IMG/VR virus record: IMGVR_UViG_3300037755_000147
Location: 1 to 48,144 of that record
Source: a virus
Lineage: Duplodnaviria > Caudoviricetes
Reading direction: 5' to 3' (one strand)
Length of the DNA stretch: 48,144 nucleotides
The stretch's first letter is position 1, and every line of letters begins with the position of its first letter. This document shows positions 1-48,144 of this stretch, piece by piece. A program made the position numbers and the translations under genes. The notes below the pieces were generated by a model. That model saw only the letters and a list, made by a program, of their open reading frames with translations. It was not told the origin of the DNA and searched no databases.

Positions 1-281
1 TTGTTCGTCACCAGATCGAACTTGCCGACCAGGTCGTAGTGCTTACCCTGAATGGGCTTGTTCAGGTCCACCACCCGCGCGCCCATCTCGGTGTTCACGT
101 CCAGGGCGGTGTAGGATTCGAAGCCAAGCGCCAGATAGAAGGCCTCGGTGCTGGGAAAGGGTTCGTCCGCGGTGAAGCGCTGGTTGCCCAGTTCGCAGAC
201 GCCGGCCTCAGACCACTTATCCCAATTCTGCTCCTGCTGGATCTGCTTCACCGCCTGCGCGGCCAGGGGATGGAACGTCAC
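1..281 (-). CDS. Class I SAM-dependent methyltransferase-like protein (partial, runs off the window)
   Basis: Manual translation from GTG 281 (GTGA overlap with upstream stop): MTFHPLAAQ...VCELGNQ...FYLALGFESYTALDVN...VVDLNKP...FDLVTN; not in ORF track. Confidence 0.6.
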   Translation of the reverse strand, partial: MTFHPLAAQAVKQIQQEQNWDKWSEAGVCELGNQRFTADEPFPSTEAFYLALGFESYTALDVNTEMGARVVDLNKPIQGKHYDLVGKFDLVTN

Positions 282-898
282 GCTTCGCTCTCCTGCCAGG
301 CAAAGATCAGGTCCTTGCCGCAGCTCTCCACCAGATTTGCCCCCAGGCCTTCCATCACATGGCGGGGCCCGTTGTCGCGCTCCCCGTCGCGCCAGCACTC
401 CACGATGACCACCGGCCTGTATGTTTCCAGCGTCGCGCGACTGCCCAGCAGCGCCTTTACCTCATGGCCCTGCACGTCGTACTTGATCAGGTCCGGCGCG
501 AGGCCGAAACTGTCCAGCGTCGCGGCTTCGATCTTCTCGCCCGGCTCAGCCGTCCCGTCGTAGGGACGACACTCCCAGGCGCCGGAATTGACCGGCATAG
601 GATTGACGAGGCTCAGCGTCCCGGCCTTATCCGAGAGCGCGAGGCGATGTGCGATGCTGCGCAGCGGATCCATGTTGCGGCGCAGGCAGGCGAAGTTGTC
701 CGACTGCGGCTCGAAGCACACCACCCGCTCGAAGCCCCTTACGATCATCTGCCGGGACAGCAGCCCCACATGGGCGCCGGCATCTACCGCGAGGCGCTTC
801 GCGCGGCAGTACGGCAAGGCTTTTTCGATGATCAGCTTCTGATAGCCATCCGCCCGCTTGAAGTGGCGGTCAGCCTCGGGAAAGGCCAGGACCGTCAT
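278..898 (-). CDS. FkbM-family methyltransferase
   Basis: VDAGAHVG motif I, CFEP, TLDSF, IKYDVQGHE, RPVVIVE; ATG 898 overlaps upstream TGA. Confidence 0.85.
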   Translation of the reverse strand: MTVLAFPEADRHFKRADGYQKLIIEKALPYCRAKRLAVDAGAHVGLLSRQMIVRGFERVVCFEPQSDNFACLRRNMDPLRSIAHRLALSDKAGTLSLVNPMPVNSGAWECRPYDGTAEPGEKIEAATLDSFGLAPDLIKYDVQGHEVKALLGSRATLETYRPVVIVECWRDGERDNGPRHVMEGLGANLVESCGKDLIFAWQESEA

Positions 899-1632
899 GC
901 GGCTTCGGCCATCTGATCGCCGTAGCGGGCCATAAGGTCCGCCCAGCACTTGCCGGAGCGCATTTCCGCCAGGGTCCATTGGTTGTCGGCGAGCCAGGGA
1001 AACACTCTGTGGCGGCTGCCCATGTTCACCCAGGACGCGGGACTAAAGCCGATCTCCCTGACTCGGTATCCTGCCCGCGCCGCCTCAAGCAAGGCATTGG
1101 ACTGAAAACCGACGACTAGCGAGCAATAGGGCAAAACGTCGGCGAGATCACCGTCATCCTTGTCCTTGACAACCAATTCAGCGGCGCCGGACGACCACGC
1201 ATCAATCTGCTCGCGATCAAATTCGTCAGCATCGATGCCCAAATACGACGCCACATGGCGAGAAATGGGCAAGTAAACGATTCGCCGGCCGCCCTCGGTC
1301 CACGGCTCTATCTCCAGCCCCAGCGCATCCCACCGCTTCCCGTCGCTCGGCTGCGGCGGTCCCTGCAGGTGCCGGTCGCAGAACACCACCCGGTAATAGC
1401 CGTCGTAGTGGCCCCGACCGAAATACCCGTGGTCGATGTAGAAATAGGGGATGCCGTAGAGTTCGCATTCCTTGATGCGCTCTCCGGCCCCTCTCAGAAT
1501 GCCCCACATGGCCGCCATGCCGTGTCCTACCCTGGAGGTGGCCGGGACTAGCTTACCTCCACAGCCTTCAGCGAAGGCGCTACAGACCACCTTGGCGTGT
1601 TGGTGGTCGGCGCAGTAGATGGTTGGGGTCAT
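895..1632 (-). CDS. Putative glycosyltransferase-like protein (KpsC/KpsS capsule-biosynthesis-like)
   Basis: YIDHGYF and VVGFQSNALLEAARAG motifs resemble the KpsS-type GT-B C-terminal signature; recognised by eye. Confidence 0.5.
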   Translation of the reverse strand: MTPTIYCADHQHAKVVCSAFAEGCGGKLVPATSRVGHGMAAMWGILRGAGERIKECELYGIPYFYIDHGYFGRGHYDGYYRVVFCDRHLQGPPQPSDGKRWDALGLEIEPWTEGGRRIVYLPISRHVASYLGIDADEFDREQIDAWSSGAAELVVKDKDDGDLADVLPYCSLVVGFQSNALLEAARAGYRVREIGFSPASWVNMGSRHRVFPWLADNQWTLAEMRSGKCWADLMARYGDQMAEAA

Positions 1633-2483
1633 CGCTGCTTGCCCGCCCCCTGCTTCTCAGCGAACCACTGATCGAGCCATGTGACGAACTGCTGCTGGGT
1701 TTGGGGTGCTGCGTTTTCGATGGCCCACTTCAGGAACGTAAGCCGAGTGCTCGGGATAGCACCATCCCACAATGTCTTTAGCTTGCTGATCCTAGACTGG
1801 GCGTCGGTCGTTTGCACAACATACTTTTTCTTTTCCGACAACACCATATTAGCAAACGACAAACAGGCGTTCATGGACGGCGGCTTAGCGCGCGATTCTT
1901 GCTCACTGAGCCAGGCGTTGAATTTGTCCTCTGGGATGCTAGCTATCCGTTGCGCCCTAAGGGCGGCACGACAGGTAATACCAAAACTTCCCACCGGCCT
2001 ACCTGCCTTACCGCGCAGCATAGAGCGGGTGCTCTTCTTTATGCTACTAACGGTGGACTCGCTAACGCCATATTTCCTAGCAAGAGCCCTGCCAGAACCA
2101 GTGTCCGCCAGGATTTGTGTTACCAATTCATCGGAAATCTGCGGACGTCCGGACCCTCCGACCAAAATCTCTCCGCGCTCCTTCAGTGCTGCAACAAGCT
2201 CGCCAAGGCGGCGGTTGTTATAAAGATATAACTTCGCCGCATTCATGTGCATCTGGGGAAACTTGGATTTGTAGGCATAGGCCTTCATCATTTCAATCGG
2301 GCTCTCCCACGCGAGGCATTCGTCAATCGTGACGGCCTTGGCGATTGCTGCCCTGGCATCCTCAAAGATCGGCAGCTTGTTCCGAATGTCGTCATCCGTG
2401 GTCGCCAGCGCCGTTCCGGTGGCGCCCAAAATCTCCACCTCGTCAGCGGAGTACACTTTTCCTGTGTCGAGAAGTTCCGACAT
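1629..2483 (-). CDS. Hypothetical DNA-binding protein with internal HTH
   Basis: GRALARKYGVSESTVSSIK HTH; flanks resemble the N-terminal region of phage MT-A70-type proteins; visibly more AT-rich than neighbours. Confidence 0.55.
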   Translation of the reverse strand: MSELLDTGKVYSADEVEILGATGTALATTDDDIRNKLPIFEDARAAIAKAVTIDECLAWESPIEMMKAYAYKSKFPQMHMNAAKLYLYNNRRLGELVAALKERGEILVGGSGRPQISDELVTQILADTGSGRALARKYGVSESTVSSIKKSTRSMLRGKAGRPVGSFGITCRAALRAQRIASIPEDKFNAWLSEQESRAKPPSMNACLSFANMVLSEKKKYVVQTTDAQSRISKLKTLWDGAIPSTRLTFLKWAIENAAPQTQQQFVTWLDQWFAEKQGAGKQR

Positions 2484-4071: not shown

Positions 4072-4381
4072 TTTCTACCTGTGGTATGCCGGAAAGCACC
4101 AATCCAGCAACTTCCTTTCTACTGGCTCGGAAGCAAACGTAAGAATGTTGCTGTAATGGCAACCTTCGCGAGATTTCTTTGCTGTCTCTGGGCCGGGATA
4201 GGACTGCGGCAACCTTCCTCGCGGATTTCCTGAAATTTGGCTGGAATGCTTGGTAACCATGGGCGGGCGGGCGTGAATACGCACAAGCCAACTCAGCGAA
4301 GGCCACCCCCTTCACCCAAAGGCCCCCTCCCAGGACTGCCTTAGTTGGCAGTATCGCGATAGATAATCTCCGGCCACAGCC

Positions 4382-4394
4382 TAAGCCATTGATA
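4382..4394 (-). promoter_or_regulatory. IHF-binding consensus
   Basis: TATCAATGGCTTA matches WATCAANNNNTTR in an AT-rich intergenic patch. Confidence 0.5.
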
Positions 4395-4408: not shown

Positions 4409-4436
4409 AGCGCGCCTAACTGGCATTATGGAAAAT
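4409..4436 (+). other. dif-like XerC/XerD recombination site
   Basis: AGCGCGCCTAA-CTGGCA-TTATGGAAAAT; 11-6-11 layout; arms 8/11 and 9/11 to E. coli dif (GGTGCGCATAA-TGTATA-TTATGTTAAAT). Confidence 0.6.
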
Positions 4437-4692: not shown

Positions 4693-4894
4693 TATCAGCC
4701 GTCCATGTGTTGTCTTCCATGGGCTCTATGTCGGCGAGCATCTCAGTAAGCCTGCCGGCTGCCGCCTCAAGATCGAAACGTCCATCCAGGTCAGCTAACG
4801 CGCCGCTGCCCTCGAAGCCACATGCATAGACGTCCACATAAGCGTTCTTCAGGGCCGCCAGCAGCATCTCGGGCGTAATTTCAAACCAGCTCAC
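4685..4894 (-). CDS. Hypothetical protein
   Basis: 69-aa ORF, GTGA overlap with terS stop. Confidence 0.6.
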   Translation of the reverse strand: MSWFEITPEMLLAALKNAYVDVYACGFEGSGALADLDGRFDLEAAAGRLTEMLADIEPMEDNTWTADIG

Positions 4895-5562
4895 TGGCTC
4901 ACCGTCTCAATCTCAATGATGTCCTCATCGCAAGGAATCGCGCCGCGGTTCAGGTCAAACCTGAAATTCACCACCAGGCCATGCCCTCCGCCTTGCCCGG
5001 TTCCGCCCCAATCCTCACGGGTCATGGGGTTTACCTGCAAGAGCTTATCTGAGGCCTTCCAGTCTCCGCGCTTTCCCGCCTCCACCACATAGCCTACCTG
5101 GGCCTGGCAGAACTTGGCATTGGCCGCGTCGAGCTGGTCCGCGAAGTCTTGGTCGTCATCACGCCAGCGCTTGAGTGTGTCCGGATGAATACCCGTAGAC
5201 CGTGCCGCCAGCCTCTGATCGCCCGTCAATTCAACCTGAGCTAGGATATGTGCCGCATTCTCAGGCGTGCGCTTACCCCAATTGGCGATCTGTGTTGCAC
5301 TGCGGGATGGGCCGGTTGCCAGTTGGTTGCCGGTCTGGCTGTGGGTTGCCACAATCGGTTGCCACTTCTCCGCCGCCTCACGCACCTTGGCCGCCTGGGG
5401 ATTGCTTGCCCAGCCCTCGCGGTTGGAGCGCTTTAGGATGGCCTGCTTACTGATCTTGTTGCCCTGGGCCGTCATGTCCCTAGCTATGGCGTTAGCGGCC
5501 TTGCCAGCCTCGTACAGGCGCTTAATCTCATTCCAGGGAACGGGCTTGGTGTTAGCTGGCAT
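4891..5562 (-). CDS. terS: Terminase small subunit (module 1)
   Basis: N-terminal WNEIKRLYEAG...AILKRSNREGW HTH, second HTH (AARSTGIHPDTLKRW), GDWKA motif; upstream of TerL. Confidence 0.75.
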   Translation of the reverse strand: MPANTKPVPWNEIKRLYEAGKAANAIARDMTAQGNKISKQAILKRSNREGWASNPQAAKVREAAEKWQPIVATHSQTGNQLATGPSRSATQIANWGKRTPENAAHILAQVELTGDQRLAARSTGIHPDTLKRWRDDDQDFADQLDAANAKFCQAQVGYVVEAGKRGDWKASDKLLQVNPMTREDWGGTGQGGGHGLVVNFRFDLNRGAIPCDEDIIEIETVSQ

Positions 5563-5594
5563 GGTTACTTCACCCTAAACCCCATCGGCAGCCT
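5468..5594 (+). repeat. 127-bp exact direct repeat, copy 1
   Basis: Identical to 48018-48144. Confidence 0.97.
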
Positions 5595-14124: not shown

Positions 14125-14398
14125 TCAGATCGTTCGGACAACTCGCGGAAGAACTGGTGGCCCGGCTGCGGGTGGCGCGTGAGGCGCCGGACTTATCCCC
14201 AGGGTTATCCATAGGCCGTGACACAAAAGTGACTTCCGAGGATGGTCGGCTACTTGATTTCGCTATCACAGATTGTTTAGGATTGGAGGAAGCGCAGCGG
14301 AACGCTGTCAACCGGGGGGTTGGACAAGACGAAGGGATCGCATCGAAGTGTCCGCAAACCTTCACGTCGTTGCCTCTAACCATCCCTTCGCCCTCCGC

Positions 14399-14620
14399 TC
14401 AGGCCGCCGAACGGCTAAAGAGCCGCTCATTAAACGGGTGCCCCTCCGCCTCGCAGGCGGACTTGATGTCCCGAAAAAGAAGCAGGCTGTCCGGAAAGGT
14501 GTTCGTCCTTCGCCAGTTGCTTACCCGGCTAGGAAGAAGCCCAAAGCGCGCCGCAAAGGCGCCGGTGCCACCGAAGGCGTCGACGACGGAAGAGACGGTA
14601 ATTTGACGGGTGTTGCTCAT
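14399..14620 (-). CDS. cro: Cro-like repressor
   Basis: VVDAFGGTGAFAARFGLLPSRVSNWRR; divergent from cI; -10 box 8 nt from ATG suggests a leaderless mRNA. Confidence 0.8.
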   Translation of the reverse strand: MSNTRQITVSSVVDAFGGTGAFAARFGLLPSRVSNWRRTNTFPDSLLLFRDIKSACEAEGHPFNERLFSRSAA

Positions 14621-14628
14621 AAGGATGG

Positions 14629-14668
14629 AGTATATTCAAGTAGCTTGAAGATTGTCAAGCTGCTTGAA
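14629..14668 (-). promoter_or_regulatory. pR promoter with two operators (OR)
   Basis: TTGACA-N18-TATACT (14658-14629); TTCAAGTAGCTTGAA 14635-14649 and GTCAAGCTGCTTGAA 14654-14668. Confidence 0.8.
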
Positions 14669-14710
14669 GAAGAAATGACATGCCCGCGGTTTACCGGTTT
14701 CCTTGGGGGT

Positions 14711-15019
14711 ATGTCCCAGGCCAAGAGAAAAACCGCGACGCCTACCAGCCCCCGCAGCACCGACGCTATCGGCGCCCGGCTGTTAACCACTCGCGAGGTC
14801 TTGGGATATGACGGCCGGCAACAGGCGTCCTATGCCAACCAGGCCGGCATTGCGCCGAATCGCTATAACCAGTGGGAACGTGGCCACGTCCGAATCAACC
14901 TGGACGGCGCCATGCAGCTCTGCCTACGGTATGGCCTGACCCTTGACTGGATCTACTTCGGCGACCGTTCCTGCCTGCCGTCCAGGATCGCTGAGAAGCT
15001 ACCCCCCGAAACCCTCTAA
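14711..15019 (+). CDS. cI: CI-like XRE repressor (HTH only, 102 aa)
   Basis: IGARL...QASYANQAGIAPNRYNQWERG...LTLDWIYFGD; flanked by operator pairs. Confidence 0.85.
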   Translation: MSQAKRKTATPTSPRSTDAIGARLLTTREVLGYDGRQQASYANQAGIAPNRYNQWERGHVRINLDGAMQLCLRYGLTLDWIYFGDRSCLPSRIAEKLPPETL

Positions 15020-15144: not shown

Positions 15145-15591
15145 ATGACGCCAGTAGAAGCCGCCACCGCGTACCGCGAGTTCCTGAAGTCCGTTGGCCC
15201 GGACGCGAACATTTATGTGTCGCTGAACGTCGGGATATTCGAGGCCCGGAAGGGCACTCTACACGCGATGCTGTATCCGGCTGGCATCTGCCACAGTAGC
15301 GGCTACGTGTCCGCCGACGCCGACACCTTCGAGGACTTGCTGGCTGCAATCGGCTCTGTTTGGGCCGAGTCCGCCGACCGCAACCGCGCCGAGCGAGTCC
15401 GCAAGATGGCGCTGGAGATCATCCGCATCACTGCCGAGCAGGGCGCCTGCACCGACGCAGCGCTGCGAGCCGACGAGTTCACCGCCGACGAGGTAAGCCG
15501 CTACAGCGAGGCCGCCATTGCCGACGCGAACGAAATCGCGAGCAACGGCCCGTTCAGCATCGTGCGGCTTGCCGGCGCCAACGCGGCCTAA
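15145..15591 (+). CDS. Hypothetical protein (first pL gene)
   Basis: ATG 15145 after GGAG. Confidence 0.7.
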
Positions 15592-15617
15592 CCACCCCAC
15601 TATGGAGCAGTAGAGCG

Positions 15618-16430
15618 ATGACCTTCAAATTTCCGATCAAGTCCCGCTGGACCGGCACCGTCCTCTTCGAGGCCGACCTCGACGCCAGCTTGGAGACGGA
15701 AAGCGACAGCTTCAAACTCGGCGCGGCGGTGAAGGTCGCGGTCAAAGCGCGCGCCAACCTCGCGCGCGCCTACCTCGCGGACGCCAACCTCGCGGGCGCC
15801 TACCTCGCGGGCGCCAACCTCACGGACGCCAACCTCGCGGGCGCCTACCTCGCGGGCGCCAACCTCACGGGCGCCTACCTCGCGCGCGCCTACCTCGCGG
15901 GCGCCAACCTCACGGACGCCAACCTCGCGCGCGCCTACCTCGCGGGCGCCTACCTCGCGGACGCCAACCTCGCGCGCGCCTACCTCGCGGACGCCAACCT
16001 CGCGGGCGCCTACCTCGCGGACGCCAACCTCGCGCGCGCCTACCTCGCGGACGCCAACCTCGCGCGCGCCAACCTCACGGGCGCCTACCTCGCGCGCGCC
16101 TACCTCGCGGGCGCCTACCTCGCGGGCGCCAACCTCACGGACGCCAACCTCGCGGGCGCCAACCTCGCGGACGCCAAATGGCGCGACGGCATCACCATCA
16201 CGAAAGCGCCAATCCAGATCTACGGCCTGCGCTGGACCGTCCACGTCCTCGACACGCACATGCAGATCGGCTGCGAACTGCACAGTCATGAGGACTGGGC
16301 CGGCTTCGATGACCGCCACATCATACAGATGGAGGGGCGTGCAGCGCTGGAGTTCTGGCGCGCACACAAGGAGTCTCTGCTGGCGCTGTGTCTAACGCAC
16401 GCGCCGAAGGCTGAGACTGAAACCGCCTAA
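15618..16430 (+). CDS. Pentapeptide-repeat protein
   Basis: ATG 15618; A(N/Y)L(A/T)(G/D/R) repeats; C-terminal MQIGCELH...W domain. Confidence 0.92.
15751..16170 (+). repeat. 28 x 15-bp tandem repeat (coding)
   Basis: Unit RCGCCWACCTCRCGS. Confidence 0.95.
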
Positions 16431-21709: not shown

Positions 21710-21918
21710 TGACCCGCACCGACGAAGACTCCTTCCTGGCTAACCTCAGTGGCGCCATGCGCCGCAGCGCGGACGTGCATGCGCTGGAGGTGCTTTGGCG
21801 GGACTACGAGGCCCAGATAGCCGCCTGTAGCCAGGAGGGCCGTGATGAACTGCGCCGGTTCCGGGCGGAGCGGGGGCGGGAATTGATGACAACCCTATCG
21901 AGGAGCGACAAATGGTAA
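21709..21918 (+). CDS. Hypothetical protein
   Basis: ATG 21709, coupled. Confidence 0.55.
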   Translation: MTRTDEDSFLANLSGAMRRSADVHALEVLWRDYEAQIAACSQEGRDELRRFRAERGRELMTTLSRSDKW

Positions 21919-22280
21919 TGAACCCGGAAGACCTGCGCAAGCCAATGACCGCGTACGACTGGGAGATCGTCGGCCACCAGTACCGCAAGAACGACCTCCC
22001 TACCCTGCCCCGCGCGCGCCTGGACATTCCCCTGCCCGCCACGCTGGAAGAGTGCCACACCATCGCGCACCGCCTCTCGGGCCTGTCCCAGGCGATTGGG
22101 CAGGCCATCCGCCTTGCCTCCACCAGCCGCTCGGGAATGCTGGAAGTCAAGGGGCTGATCAATCAGTCCCGCCAGCAGTTCCAGATCCTCGGCAAAGAGA
22201 TGGAACGGGAGTTGCGCGAGGCCGAAGAAATGGCCAATAATTCGGCAAATACAGTGGAACGTTTGCGGGCCGTAGAGTGA
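21912..22280 (+). CDS. Hypothetical protein (in the xis/int slot)
   Basis: 122 aa; no tyrosine or serine recombinase motifs. Confidence 0.65.
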   Translation: MVMNPEDLRKPMTAYDWEIVGHQYRKNDLPTLPRARLDIPLPATLEECHTIAHRLSGLSQAIGQAIRLASTSRSGMLEVKGLINQSRQQFQILGKEMERELREAEEMANNSANTVERLRAVE

Positions 22281-22343
22281 ACAACTACTTTTAGTCCACT
22301 TACTGACCTACTGTATCTAGTGTATCTGCTAAGTCTAAGTAAG

Positions 22344-22371
22344 ATGTGACGGAATATAAAATATGCGCGCT
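22344..22371 (-). other. dif-like XerC/XerD site A
   Basis: AGCGCGCATAT-TTTATA-TTCCGTCACAT (8/11, 5/6, 7/11 to E. coli dif). Confidence 0.5.
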
Positions 22372-22384
22372 TATCAACGGCTTA
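22372..22384 (+). promoter_or_regulatory. IHF-binding consensus
   Basis: TATCAACGGCTTA matches WATCAANNNNTTR. Confidence 0.5.
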
Positions 22385-22541
22385 GTTAATTTCAAATTCG
22401 AGAACGGCAGAAACACTTGGTAATAATCTTACGTTTCCGTTTAAGTCCCTGTATGTACTCAGCCTAAATGTAGACCAGTTGCAATCGCAACCATTTTGTA
22501 GAGAACGGGCGAACTTTAATTGCCCTGCCCTGTCTGGGCGG

Positions 22542-22569
22542 ATGTTCCCATAGCGGAATTATGCGCGCT
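22542..22569 (-). other. dif-like XerC/XerD site B
   Basis: AGCGCGCATAA-TTCCGC-TATGGGAACAT (XerC arm 9/11; XerD arm degenerate). Confidence 0.5.
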
Positions 22570-22615
22570 TGCAACATGCGATCCGGCGGTATCCCCGCCA
22601 CTGTGGAGGTGTGAA

Positions 22616-22858
22616 ATGAAGGCGATAACGGCAAGCCAGCGGCGCGTCCTGGAGCGTGGCTACATGGTGCTCTATCTTGGGAACAAGACCGGACAGGCGT
22701 TCGGAGACACCTACTGGACCTGGGCCGCCCTGATAGATCGTGGGTGGCTACGTCACGAGCGCAGCAACCTCCGGGAGCCCTATCCGTGGGAGCGGTATCG
22801 AGTGACCCGCAAGGGCAAGGCGGCGCTTGCTGACCTTCCCGCCACTGTGGAGGAATGA
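22616..22858 (+). CDS. Hypothetical protein (winged-helix-like)
   Basis: ATG 22616 after GGAGGT; ALIDRGWL...YRVTRKGK. Confidence 0.65.
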   Translation: MKAITASQRRVLERGYMVLYLGNKTGQAFGDTYWTWAALIDRGWLRHERSNLREPYPWERYRVTRKGKAALADLPATVEE

Positions 22859-22861
22859 GAG

Positions 22862-23053
22862 ATGGAGTGGCAACCTAGCAGCACGGCGCCGCATGGGCGG
22901 GTTGTGGAGACAAAAATCGATGACGAGCATGGGCCTCGCAATCACGCCTACTTGAAGCGAGATGTCCGGCTATGGTTCGTCCCTGACGGCAGCATGTATG
23001 TCTACTACACTCCGACTCACTGGCGCCTCCGCGCCGCAGCAAAGAAGGAATAG
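22862..23053 (+). CDS. Hypothetical protein (DUF551-like)
   Basis: MEWQPSSTAP...PTHW. Confidence 0.7.
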   Translation: MEWQPSSTAPHGRVVETKIDDEHGPRNHAYLKRDVRLWFVPDGSMYVYYTPTHWRLRAAAKKE

Positions 23054-23287
23054 AGGATGACTGAAGATACGATGCGCCAGCAAGCGGAAGCCGTGGCAGC
23101 CAGAATGGCCAATCGCATGGGCTATACACCTGACGAGGTGCGGAGCTACAAGCGCGGCCTCCTGAAGGCGGCGGAGATGGCTGAGGAGGAGGCGGACAAA
23201 CAGAGGTGGAAAGGCAATATGTTCGCCTCGACGGCGTTGACGCAACTCGCCGCCTGCCTCCGCGCCGCAGCAAAGAAGGAATAGAGG
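23025..23287 (+). repeat. 32-bp exact direct repeat (23025-23056 and 23256-23287)
   Basis: GCCTCCGCGCCGCAGCAAAGAAGGAATAGAGG occurs twice. Confidence 0.95.
23057..23284 (+). CDS. Hypothetical protein
   Basis: 75 aa; ends LRAAAKKE like the preceding gene. Confidence 0.65.
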   Translation: MTEDTMRQQAEAVAARMANRMGYTPDEVRSYKRGLLKAAEMAEEEADKQRWKGNMFASTALTQLAACLRAAAKKE

Positions 23288-23497
23288 GTGGGCAACAATC
23301 TTTGGGGCAGGCTCGGCAACGGCGATTTGCCGCACCCCGATCAATTTACAGATACCCTGGAAATGGCGGCGCGCCGCGTTATGGATGCCCTATACCATCG
23401 ACGCACAACGCTTGGCCCGGAAGCCCATGAAGCCCTGCTGGACCTGGGGCATCTACTGCGCCCCCGCCTCCGCGCCCCTTCCAATGAAGGGAAGTAG
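23288..23497 (+). CDS. Hypothetical protein
   Basis: 69 aa, GTG start. Confidence 0.55.
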   Translation: MGNNLWGRLGNGDLPHPDQFTDTLEMAARRVMDALYHRRTTLGPEAHEALLDLGHLLRPRLRAPSNEGK

Positions 23498-42986: not shown

Positions 42987-45236
42987 CTATTGCCGGTCAA
43001 TGTTGATATCGGCCTGCTTGGCCTGCTGCGTCTGTGCCTGGAGGGCCATTTCCATTTGAGCCAGCCGCGTCTCAAGCAGCATCTCCGCCACCCGCATACG
43101 CTCCTCAAGGGCAAGTTTGGCAGCCGCCACACGGGTTTCCACCGCCGCATCGATCTCCGCCTCCCGCATCGCCGTTTCAGCCTCGATACCAGCCTCCACA
43201 AGCTGCGCCTGAGCGCCGAACTCCGCCACCTGCTGCTTGGTCATCGCGTCGGCCTGTGCCTTCTTGCCGGCAAGCTGCGCGTCGCCCTGCTGCTTCATCA
43301 TCTTGGCCTGATGGTCCAGCTTCACCTTCTCCATGCGCGGATCGGGCGGCGGTGGCTGGCGCTTGGCCTCCTCCATCTTCCGCGCCACAAGCTGCTTTAC
43401 CTGCTCGGGGGGATTGAAGAAGCTGGTCGAGGGGCCGACGCCCGTGAGCTGCGCGATCCTGGCGAGCGTATGTGCGTACTGATCCGGAGTGCAGACCGGG
43501 TTGTCGGCCCCAAGGGTGAGTAGGATTTCCTTCTGCTCCTGCTTGATCATCTGCAAAGCGACGAGGTTCTCATCCCGCGAGCCCGTCCCGAGGCCAACCA
43601 TGACCTCCAGCTCCATGTCGTCCGGCCAGTCCTTGGGGTTGACCGTCTTGTACTGCCCTGACTTGCGGATTTCCATCTGGCCGGACTCACTGGAGCGGAT
43701 CAGTGCCAGCACCTTGCGCGCCATGGGAACCAATGCCCGGTGTGCTATCGTGGCCGCGATCATCTCGGGCTGGGTCTGCCCCGCCCCCAGCACGGCCAGC
43801 ACGCCAATCTCCGAGGATGCCTGGAGGTTCTGCGCCGCAAGGCCCATGCTTTCCTTGCTGATGCCGGTGCGCTCCGCCCGCGTCTCGTTGAAGGCCTCAC
43901 GCACCATCAGGGCCTTGTCGCCAATGAAGGGCGTCACGTCCCAGGTAACAGCATCGGGATGGTCGACCTCAAAAACACCGTTGAACTTGTTTTCAATCAG
44001 GCTTTGCCGGTCGTATTGGTCCTTCACCGCCTTGCGGCGCGGGTTATTGACCAGCACCAGGTTATCCAGCACCTGCCGGGTAATCTGCGTCTCCACGTCC
44101 TGCAGGTCCATCACGTTGTCGGCCTGGCTCTCGCCAATCACATTGTGCTCAATGGCAATGGCGGGCGAGTCGCAGAACGGATGATCGTCCGCGTACTCAT
44201 CCTCGACAATCTCAGCCGGACCCTCTCCGATACCCACCACATGGCGCAGCTCGGCAAAGCCGTCGCCGTCCCTGTCAATGCGGATGTAGAGGTCGTAAAC
44301 CGCGATAGGCTGCGTGGCCTTGTCGGCGTTGCCGCGCTCCTCGGTCGGATCCTGAGTACCACCACGACGCGCCCGGCGCTCCTGGTCCATGTGATCCGAG
44401 GTGGCCCCGCCCGTGCCCGACCCGGCATGCTTGATCGCCGTATCCCAATCAACGCCCATCTCGACCACGTCGGAGACGGTCTTGATGCTCTTCTGGCCCA
44501 CCAGCTTATAGTGGCCGTACTCGGTCGAGGAAGCGCCGCGATCCACCAGGAACTCCTCGGGCGGCACCGGCTCAATACAGATGCGGCTCTTGCTGGAGCG
44601 GCGCCTTACCGTGGCGTTGACCCTCATTTGAGGCGCCGTGTAAATCCCTGGGATTTCCTCAATCCTAGCGTCCACCACCTCAATCTCGTCGCTGCCGGCC
44701 AGCATGAAGAACTCTTCCTGGCTGCCCTGGAACTCACGCTCCTGAACGCGCGTTTCGTCCTTCTCGTACACCTTGAAAACGCCCGTCTTGGCCTTCAGGC
44801 AATCCCTGACGAAGGTCTGCATGTTCAGCCAGCCAGGGTTCATGTTCCAGAAGATATGGCTTACAGCGTCGGTCGCGTCCTGGGCGTCCTGCTGCATCTT
44901 CGGGTCCATCGAGCCGGAGCGGAACGCCACCACGTCGGTTCCACCCGTGAAGATCCGCATAAGCTGGGGAACGGTCTGCTCGATGGTGTCGCGCACCACC
45001 CGCATGACGAACTTGGATCGGCCCTTCTGGGCCGGCAGGTCGCAGCCGCCATTGTAATAGATATGCGCCTTGGCACGCTCAGGGCTGATGTCCTGCTCGA
45101 TCCAGTTCTCAGCGTCGGAACAGATGTCCTTGATGGCCGAGGCATAGGCCTCATCGGACATGCCGGTTTCCTCCTCGGCCCGCTCTTCGCCTTCCATCTC
45201 GGCTATTTCTGCGGGGAGAAGGTCAACCATGCTCAC
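42987..45236 (-). CDS. Portal protein (P22-like, long C-terminal coiled coil)
   Basis: GRSKFV...VRDTIE, VPPEEFLVD, DLQD, Gln/Ala barrel; follows TerL. Confidence 0.9.
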   Translation of the reverse strand: MSMVDLLPAEIAEMEGEERAEEETGMSDEAYASAIKDICSDAENWIEQDISPERAKAHIYYNGGCDLPAQKGRSKFVMRVVRDTIEQTVPQLMRIFTGGTDVVAFRSGSMDPKMQQDAQDATDAVSHIFWNMNPGWLNMQTFVRDCLKAKTGVFKVYEKDETRVQEREFQGSQEEFFMLAGSDEIEVVDARIEEIPGIYTAPQMRVNATVRRRSSKSRICIEPVPPEEFLVDRGASSTEYGHYKLVGQKSIKTVSDVVEMGVDWDTAIKHAGSGTGGATSDHMDQERRARRGGTQDPTEERGNADKATQPIAVYDLYIRIDRDGDGFAELRHVVGIGEGPAEIVEDEYADDHPFCDSPAIAIEHNVIGESQADNVMDLQDVETQITRQVLDNLVLVNNPRRKAVKDQYDRQSLIENKFNGVFEVDHPDAVTWDVTPFIGDKALMVREAFNETRAERTGISKESMGLAAQNLQASSEIGVLAVLGAGQTQPEMIAATIAHRALVPMARKVLALIRSSESGQMEIRKSGQYKTVNPKDWPDDMELEVMVGLGTGSRDENLVALQMIKQEQKEILLTLGADNPVCTPDQYAHTLARIAQLTGVGPSTSFFNPPEQVKQLVARKMEEAKRQPPPPDPRMEKVKLDHQAKMMKQQGDAQLAGKKAQADAMTKQQVAEFGAQAQLVEAGIEAETAMREAEIDAAVETRVAAAKLALEERMRVAEMLLETRLAQMEMALQAQTQQAKQADINIDRQ

Positions 45237-47440: not shown

Positions 47441-47760
47441 CGATTCCTCGTCTGCAAAGAGAAATACCGCCCAAGCCGCTGCACATAGGCAAGGCTGGTG
47501 AGGATCAGGCGCCAGTCGCCAGGGTTCCACTCGTAGCGGCCAAGCAGGTAGTCAACAATCTCCCGGGCCAGGATGGGCGCGCTGGGCTTCTTGAGCTTAG
47601 CCGCGGCCTTTGACTTGCGCGGAGCCTCCAGAACCTCCTCCAGGTCATCCCGGCGCACGCTGGGAGCCGTTGTCAGTTCCGGGGCAGCATCCACGCCCTC
47701 AGGAGCGGGACGGGCCTTAGGCGGCCGCCCTAGGCGCTTCTTGGGGGGCGCGTCTGTCAT
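47437..47760 (-). CDS. Hypothetical protein with AT-hook-like motif
   Basis: KKRLGRPPK; AGGAG RBS. Confidence 0.6.
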   Translation of the reverse strand: MTDAPPKKRLGRPPKARPAPEGVDAAPELTTAPSVRRDDLEEVLEAPRKSKAAAKLKKPSAPILAREIVDYLLGRYEWNPGDWRLILTSLAYVQRLGRYFSLQTRNR

Positions 47761-48112
47761 GTTGTTCTCCTTGGATTAAGCGCTCAAGGCGCCAGCCTAT
47801 CCCGTAGCGAGTCGCCACCGTCCAGCCGTGCGGCCTGATTTTACACCTGACCCGGCAGATAAGCACCCGTACGGCGCAGTGCCATTGGTCTGGCATGTGG
47901 GCCGCCGAAGGCCACAGAATTTCCGAGATAGCCTCGCCAGACAGCTCGCGGTGAAACATCAGGGCGGTCAGCACCAGGCTTTCCTGATCCTTTAGCGCCG
48001 GACTCCAACTGCGCAAAGCCGTCATGTCCCTAGCTATGGCGTTAGCGGCCTTGCCAGCCTCGTACAGGCGCTTAATCTCATTCCAGGGAACGGGCTTGGT
48101 GTTAGCTGGCAT
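47717..48112 (-). CDS. Chimeric ORF: TerS-1 N-terminal 32 aa fused to an OmpR-type winged-helix domain
   Basis: First 32 aa identical to 4891-5562; then ILWP...VRVLICRVRCKI...TRYGIGWRL. Confidence 0.65.
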   Translation of the reverse strand: MPANTKPVPWNEIKRLYEAGKAANAIARDMTALRSWSPALKDQESLVLTALMFHRELSGEAISEILWPSAAHMPDQWHCAVRVLICRVRCKIRPHGWTVATRYGIGWRLERLIQGEQHDRRAPQEAPRAAA

Positions 48113-48144
48113 GGTTACTTCACCCTAAACCCCATCGGCAGCCT
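48018..48144 (+). repeat. 127-bp exact direct repeat, copy 2 (window end)
   Basis: Identical to 5468-5594. Confidence 0.97.

Follow-up and report, generated by a model that had tools for sequence, protein, structure and literature searches.

How might a lambdoid phage enter its host chromosome when the place of its integrase is empty? The question is raised by a virus contig of 48,144 nt from sediment or soil, classed as linear, which was analysed over its whole length and is called the window in the following. A PHROG scan of 88 selected open reading frames (ORFs) places portal, scaffold, capsid, tail and endolysin genes in lambdoid order, and repressor, Erf, exonuclease, NinB-like and SSB genes are also present; no integrase is found among these ORFs.

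The empty integrase slot

The window carries a CI-like repressor frame and a divergent Cro-like ORF, a pair that is a sign of a temperate life style:

14273..15019, plus strand: CI-like repressor frame (PHROG repressor matches; divergent from the small Cro-like ORF)
14399-14620, minus strand: small Cro-like ORF (the Cro label is our own reading of the sequence)

A preliminary description of this DNA had reported that the slot for xis, int and attP holds no recombinase, and six-frame Pfam searches and PHROG scans bear this out. Domains of tyrosine integrases, resolvases and serine recombinases are absent from all six frames of the window. PF00589, PF00239 and PF07508 have no match in a six-frame profile search of the window and a complete relative, G001 (0/2 records), or in a further search (0/3) that included a second relative, G002, for which the absence is read from a linear 37.9-kb record seemingly without the immunity region. 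The PHROG scan of G001 finds no recombinase among 58 selected ORFs. G001 is a complete phage of 48,156 nt with terminal repeats (DTR), P22-like head-closure and ejection genes, and PHROG repressor matches on both divergent genes; its capsid and recombination genes differ from those of the window. The objection that the window has simply lost an integrase by deletion is met by this complete relative, which likewise lacks recombinases and keeps the module described below.

The window itself is a lasso-shaped contig, in which 48018-48144 is an exact 127-nt repeat of 5468-5594, and the PHROG scan finds two large-terminase genes. It would correspond to a 42,550-nt circle with a 5.5-kb branch bearing a second packaging module, and the two terminase modules are probably merged phage variants or a repeat that was not untangled in assembly. 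Two ORFs, at 47717-48112 and 4891-5562, have their first 32 residues in common and diverge afterwards.

A small gene and a dif-like site at a fixed distance

The recombination run ends with a gene for a 122-aa protein, followed by a 335-nt gap (22281-22615) that contains the lowest-GC 300-nt stretch of the record (0.41). The features of this module are as follows:

21912..22280, plus strand: gene for the 122-aa protein (short N-terminal motif and helical hairpin or coiled coil), a candidate Xer helper; last gene of the recombination run
22281..22343, plus strand: linker of fixed length, 63 nt; a CTACT motif precedes the XerD-side arm by 35-36 nt; length and motif in 3/3 phages
22344..22371, minus strand: site 1, the likely attP, with XerD arm 22344-22354, spacer 22355-22360 and XerC arm 22361-22371 (dif matrix, relatives, junction-like contig)
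22372..22384, plus strand: IHF consensus box abutting the site 1 XerC arm; kept in the G001 locus (L001), absent from the G002 locus (L046)
22385..22541, plus strand: conserved inter-site DNA with an inverted IHF-like box (our own reading), a GTTGC-N4-GCAAC palindrome at 22478-22491 and a TTGCCCTGCCCTGT box
22542..22569, minus strand: site 2, with the XerC arm conserved (identical in L001) and the spacer and other arm not; absent from L046

Much of this had been described beforehand. Two co-oriented 11-6-11 sites in an AT-rich gap of ~330 nt are found as given, both 28-mers lying on the minus strand as direct repeats 198 bp apart, and the IHF consensus does abut the first of them. Both had been described as sites with good XerC and degenerate XerD arms. 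The two are not equivalent: site 1 alone occurs in 3/3 phages and has a junction-like contig, whereas the spacer of site 2, TTCCGC, is GC-rich and unlike dif. Site 2 also sits in DNA of ~0.58-0.60 GC. In site 1, a dif-type XerC arm and the dif-type spacer TTTATA are joined to a XerD arm that is degenerate at its inner positions. The inner A of this arm (position 20, in the TTATG motif) is altered in 3/3 phages and position 21 in 2/3, while G22 and A25 are retained in all three. The final base of the XerC arm is T; it is A in 37/37 chromosomal comparison sites, for which A was demanded by the search pattern.

The DNA around homologs of the 122-aa gene was read for G001 and G002, which gives three loci including the window, out of a family of more than 30. 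The best-scoring DNA match between the window and G001 is the gene with its cassette (21930-22533; 613 nt, 72%, E 6e-83), and 22351-22532 is 76% identical to L001. The IHF box, the inter-site boxes and both XerC arms, here at a spacing of 200 bp, are all retained in G001. In G002, a homolog of 39% identity is followed at 63 nt by one 11-6-11 site with the spacer TGTATA, and its locus has no IHF box and no second site. The outer bases of the G002 arm are changed to those of another dif-type arm, with the 11-6-11 frame and a canonical spacer kept. The counterparts of site 1 lie at 4887-4914 of L001 and 2469-2496 of L046. The stop codon stands 63 nt before the XerD-side arm in 3/3 phages, at protein identities of 39-65%. 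Because this gene-site arrangement is common to all three phages, and site 2 and the IHF box are found in two of them, we take site 1 and the 122-aa gene as the core of the module and the remainder as confined to the closer pair; the IHF box is thus not the general part of the module that it had been taken for. Site 1 is the likely attachment site, and site 2 is likely an auxiliary XerC site rather than an attP. In L046, a perfect 10-bp inverted repeat (2403-2431) starts the 63-nt linker; it is not conserved as such in the window.

The strong evidence for the sites is their conservation in other phages rather than match counts. The IHF consensus has three matches in the window against 0.40 expected (1/100 shuffles), and two of these three boxes are on the XerC side of dif-like sites; none of the 37 chromosomal dif-like sites has an IHF box within 40 nt. 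Taken by itself, the 11-nt arm shows modest enrichment, with 3 matches at <=1 mismatch where 0.95 are expected (>=3 in 6/100 shuffles), and this, together with the AT-richness of the region and one promoter-like match in it, is what would be expected if the repeats were promoter or operator elements of the small downstream genes and their likeness to dif a coincidence. We regard this as highly improbable, since the single promoter-like match is at chance level (0.7 expected), G002 exchanges one dif-type arm for another within an intact frame, and the contig from run X1 described below switches at the border of spacer and arm.

Pattern scans retrieve little else. A DNA similarity search with 21900-22900 against 50,697 phage records gives 14 short chance matches to T4-like phages. 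The arm plus IHF pattern finds two viral loci, one real and one by chance, and 33 GTDB and 4 metagenome loci, none of which (0/37) has the cassette or the gene; the second-box pattern gives one real and one chance match, and the site 1 pattern gives two real matches and one chance match in a giant-virus contig. A repeated non-coding element of Patescibacteria (L006, L014, L019, L020 and L033), present in four copies on one contig, fits the arm plus IHF pattern and is not the phage cassette.

The 122-aa protein has 15 other family members at 60-75%, and the family has 32 cluster representatives. None of 39 members has a Pfam match above cut-off, and PHROG gives no match. In the structure model (pLDDT 87), a helical hairpin follows a short N-terminal motif; fold searches return nothing at E<=0.001 in PDB or BFVD, no usable match in the ESM Atlas and, in VIA, generic coiled coils only (best Z 8.5). 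Protein searches with this ORF in phages and plasmids find no homolog; peptide scans of viral contigs give no locus with the single protein and one with alignment A1, and those of the metagenome and GTDB collections give none. Longer fused forms are absent among 7,996 candidates, which is weak evidence. The XafT domain DUF3653 (PF12375) occurs neither in the three records (0/3) nor in the family (0/39). A helper role is proposed because of the fixed 63-nt distance, the position in the xis-int slot and the need that a damaged XerD arm creates. By position and analogy, the protein may be an activator or directionality factor and a new kind of Xer switch, a reading in which our confidence falls just short of even.

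Likeness to chromosomal dif and a junction-like contig

Published alphaproteobacterial dif sites were used for comparison (PMC2731167; this and the other papers cited here are drawn on for the portions of their text that were available). A set of 401 alphaproteobacterial genomes was searched for the inner XerC arm of the phage with TTATG at 6 nt; 65 of the genomes match, with 69 sites vs 14 for a reversed control. Fifty-one of the 69 sites were fetched (30 as returned, 21 picked mostly for AT-rich spacers), and the 37 with AT-rich spacers were kept and 14 dropped. Under a dif matrix made from these 37 sites, which is partly circular in that the pattern is phage-derived and the selection of AT-rich spacers gives site 1 an advantage over sites 2 and 3, site 1 ranks 2 of 96,234 positions in the window, 1 of 96,150 in G001 and 1 of 75,694 in G002. 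At the positions not fixed by the pattern, it ranks 4, 1 and 1, respectively, and site 2 ranks 5483. The spacers of site 1 are found among the chromosomal dif-like sites, TTTATA in 2/37 and TGTATA in 8/37. A further matrix match at 45071 was rejected as chance, as it lies within the portal gene with a score near zero.

The arm types suggest an alphaproteobacterial host, although the XerC arm alone is also present in other proteobacteria (PMC2731167). Two chromosomal dif-like sites (L092 and L093, in genomes G200 and G331) share 24 of their 28 positions, the spacer among them, with site 1 of G001, and may mark a host lineage. Another alphaproteobacterial genome (L104; G201:C4:153077 and 153778) has two co-oriented dif-like sites ~700 nt apart and a third elsewhere, possibly a small dif module or the remnant of an IMEX (integrative mobile element exploiting Xer).

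Ten public sequencing runs contain part of the region. Six were examined, among which X6 and X7 have no cover of the sites. Run X1 comes from sediment and is possibly the window's own source. In this run, two records (2 and 3) start at 22331, shortly before the end of record 1 at 22360. Of the two, record 2 represents the phage and is unbroken over 22331-23054 at a depth of 39.1. Record 3 is 468 nt long with a depth of 3.9, vs 37-39 for the phage; 39 of its letters match with one difference, and at least 255 unlike letters follow, with no IHF box in the 30 of these that could be read. Records 2 and 3 have 30 letters in common and then branch, which would put the single difference at 22361, the XerC-arm base next to the spacer; the assembly word length, which we take to be 31, agrees with overlaps of 30 nt. 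The inner arm of the partner is an 8-nt match (~2e-5 by chance at a fixed place), and the partner arm, with other outer bases, appears to resemble the XerC arm of Maricaulis dif (PMC2731167). Record 3 would be the product expected of an exchange across the spacer and has the shape of a prophage junction, in one low-depth contig of one run. Neither the reciprocal junction nor an unoccupied host dif is present in the X1 graph; short low-depth branches are often clipped by an assembler, which could hide the other junction. Run X3 crosses site 1 unbroken and without a junction contig, and no contig breaks at site 2. Cassette pieces from additional relatives are present in X1 and X3. As regards the reads expected to join the sites to host DNA, there is one junction-shaped contig at site 1, whose flank is tied to no bacterium and whose reciprocal was not seen. 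An X3 contig lacks 441 nt at 23023-23465 of the window. The skipped stretch is bounded by short repeats, at which several small ORFs end, and we read this as small genes being gained and lost in cassette fashion behind site 2.

Record 3 could instead come from a sister phage or a tandem-array neighbour with a different right half, site 1 being Xer-active and the 122-aa gene a linked passenger or a regulator binding CTACT rather than an activator of XerD. Several relatives coexist in X1 (records 4-6), the right flank varies, as G002 shows, the window itself is a mosaic assembly, and the helper role is predicted from position and analogy. However, the 19-nt motif at the loose end of record 3 has no match in viral contigs, and sequencing depth on the two sides of the site does not differ beyond noise (37.3 and 39.1), as a prophage predicts; both points argue weakly against a sister phage. 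A passenger would not be expected to hold its 63-nt distance even at 39% protein identity. We consider this alternative unlikely.

Related prophages in alphaproteobacterial genomes, which the preliminary description had suggested looking for, did not turn up: no prophage with the gene is found in the 401 genomes, in 73 genomes of the order that contains G200 and G331, in one more genome (the samples overlap) or in one GTDB peptide scan. This result, and the lack of a reciprocal junction in X1, would also fit sites that only resolve multimers of circular phage DNA, in a plasmid-like state or during theta replication, with IHF as accessory protein and no integration at dif. Two further features that bear on such a role are found elsewhere in the window:

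4409..4436, plus strand: site 3, dif-like, with a canonical XerD arm and a GC-rich spacer; top dif-matrix match of the window
4382..4394, minus strand: IHF consensus box, 14 nt from the site 3 XerC arm (consensus search)

Site 3 is flanked by the second small and large terminase genes and has the opposite orientation to sites 1 and 2. Its XerC arm is like theirs, and its XerD arm is the commonest chromosomal one (13/37). A related terminase locus, L113, has a similar site (1473-1500) 2.5 kb upstream, in the same orientation and with a downstream motif in common; another, L112, has no counterpart within 639 nt upstream. The near-canonical XerD arms and non-dif spacers of site 3 and its L113 counterpart suit multimer resolution. 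The accessory proteins of the plasmid sites cer and psi are PepA with ArgR or ArcA. These sites have a core with accessory DNA on the XerC side, a plan that fits site 3 and perhaps site 2 (PMC6744903; bioRxiv 10.64898/2026.09.14.751567), and the IHF boxes of sites 1 and 3 are on the XerC side, as plasmid accessory sequences are (bioRxiv 10.64898/2026.09.14.751567). Unlike cer and psi, site 1 has a damaged XerD arm, a chromosomal spacer and IHF as its accessory candidate. A chromosomal spacer matters for recombining with dif and not for recombining with itself; moreover, there is the junction-like contig at site 1, and the ParA-type partition ATPase PF13614 has no match in the window, G001 or G002 (0/3 records). 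Site 3 is likely a site of the multimer-resolution type, and multimer resolution probably does fit site 3 and not site 1; that it accounts for all the sites seems to us quite unlikely.

Proposed mechanism and comparison with known Xer elements

We think it probable that host XerCD integrates this temperate tailed phage at dif through site 1. The use of host XerCD by a tailed phage of more than 40 kb, as originally proposed, gains support from the module kept in the complete, recombinase-free G001, from the 63-nt gene-site spacing in G002 and from the junction-like contig at site 1. After circularisation, XerCD would exchange strands across the 6-bp spacer of site 1 and chromosomal dif. One junction would then consist of the phage XerD arm, the spacer and the host XerC arm beside the 122-aa gene, the shape seen once in a contig, and the other prophage end would be a regenerated, working dif. 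By analogy with TLCphi and GGI, the damaged XerD arm may stop FtsK-driven excision at cell division; because excision would be blocked in this way, the phage would need a switch of its own. The 122-aa product would be the helper that enables XerD on the damaged arm, and the IHF box, the inter-site DNA and site 2 would form a clade-specific accessory scaffold outside the core.

A wider reading is more tentative. The 122-aa family could be a second, unrelated class of phage Xer switch, a coiled-coil protein acting on XerD, carried in a portable gene-attP cassette that replaces xis-int-attP in lambdoid phages of alphaproteobacteria; in one clade, the protein would act together with IHF and a further XerC site, in a lambda-like intasome made of host recombinases, and a plasmid-type Xer site near the terminase would keep the genome monomeric. 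We hold this as possible and somewhat doubtful.

The window phage shares with the IMEXs the lack of its own recombinase and a dif-like 11-6-11 attP in non-coding DNA. The earlier characterisation of these elements as small ssDNA phages or satellites is too narrow: the podophage LME-1 and the 57-kb GGI have been published, as have dsDNA phages of the double-jelly-roll type. The site design agrees with that of TLCphi, whose attP pairs a good XerC arm and a good spacer with a XerD arm that is degenerate (PMC9226527); in both, the attP is double-stranded and resembles dif in its XerC arm and spacer, the XerD arm being degenerate, there is no integrase, and a small gene lies beside the attP. XafT, the TLC activator, binds XerD and has homologs near dif in gamma- and betaproteobacteria (PMC6744903), and xafT/p15 are terminal genes adjoining attP in Vibrio IMEXs (PMC12715192). 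Unlike TLCphi, however, this is a tailed lambdoid phage of 42-48 kb, and the adjacent protein has no DUF3653 or HTH match. An IHF box and a second site accompany its likely attP in one clade, whereas XafT, in the available part of the source, needs no flanking DNA (PMC6744903). VGJphi has a single 29-bp attP with spacer mismatches towards the XerD side. Site 1 has 28 bp and a spacer that is chromosomal-type by the 37-site set. A hairpin attP of single-stranded DNA of the CTXphi type was rejected: sites 1 and 2 are direct and not inverted, the gap folds unremarkably (z -1.45), and the phage is a tailed one with dsDNA.

Among larger elements, LME-1 integrates at Legionella dif via the host XerL (PMC9765430) and is a short-tailed phage (PMC12407071). 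It is a tailed dsDNA phage that uses host dif and host Xer, as the window phage probably does, and a modified site at one end stabilises its prophage (PMC9765430, PMC12407071). LME-1, according to the portions cited, has one recombinase, XerL, and a 22-bp att with the sequence of dif itself; the window phage, by contrast, has a site with arms for both XerC and XerD, of which the XerD arm is degenerate, a candidate helper gene is linked to this site, and the host is likely an alphaproteobacterium. GGI and EludIMEX-1 are likewise large dsDNA elements at dif, and in GGI the XerC arm and spacer are good, while the divergent XerD arm blocks excision (PMC5357621); these two, as described there, are not phages and have no lytic cycle that needs controlled excision. 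The double-jelly-roll phages of the dif type (Jorvik and the Vibrio PM2-like phages) are dsDNA, integrase-less and equipped with a dif-like attP (PMC10589892, PMC12715192). Jorvik, an integrase-less, tailless 8.8-kb phage of Rhodobacter with dif-like att sites, has an alphaproteobacterial host, as the window phage likely does (PMC10589892). The lysogeny module of these phages, namely repressor, P15/XafT and attP, is common to unrelated phages (PMC10589892, PMC12715192). They are, by these accounts, tailless and small, with an XafT-like helper, whereas the module of the window consists of gene and attP, with the repressor 7 kb away.

A tailed phage at dif is already known in LME-1. What is new is the probable use of XerCD, at a TLC-like site, by a lambdoid phage whose host is likely an alphaproteobacterium, together with a candidate factor other than XafT; no tailed phage using the two-recombinase XerCD appears in the literature searched, which had most subscription papers outside its reach. 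The module is real and conserved, and it probably functions as an IMEX. A tailed phage that has no integrase is usually taken to be lytic, and the gene marker with its site would re-class such phages as temperate; the dif sequence of the module would also point to their hosts. XafT is the sole element-encoded Xer activator in the literature searched, as far as the available text of those papers goes. With a family unrelated to XafT that keeps a constant distance to a TLC-like site, the control and direction of XerD in IMEXs would become addressable with a protein of 122 aa and 28 bp of DNA. IHF beside an Xer core site would be an unusual accessory arrangement.

Several minor observations concern other parts of the window. 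Beyond the second terL, 1-2483 (minus strand) carries a low-GC ORF, an unassigned 245-aa ORF and a methyltransferase, a possible cluster for DNA or surface modification, and the 245-aa ORF is retained next to terL in L112 and L113. Heptamers of the GGTTGCC type are repeated at 4100-4260 in the terS-terL gap and, reversed, at 5310-5350 inside terS, and may be packaging-site repeats. A tandem array of pentapeptide-type repeats occupies 15747-16177 within the ORF at 15360-16430.
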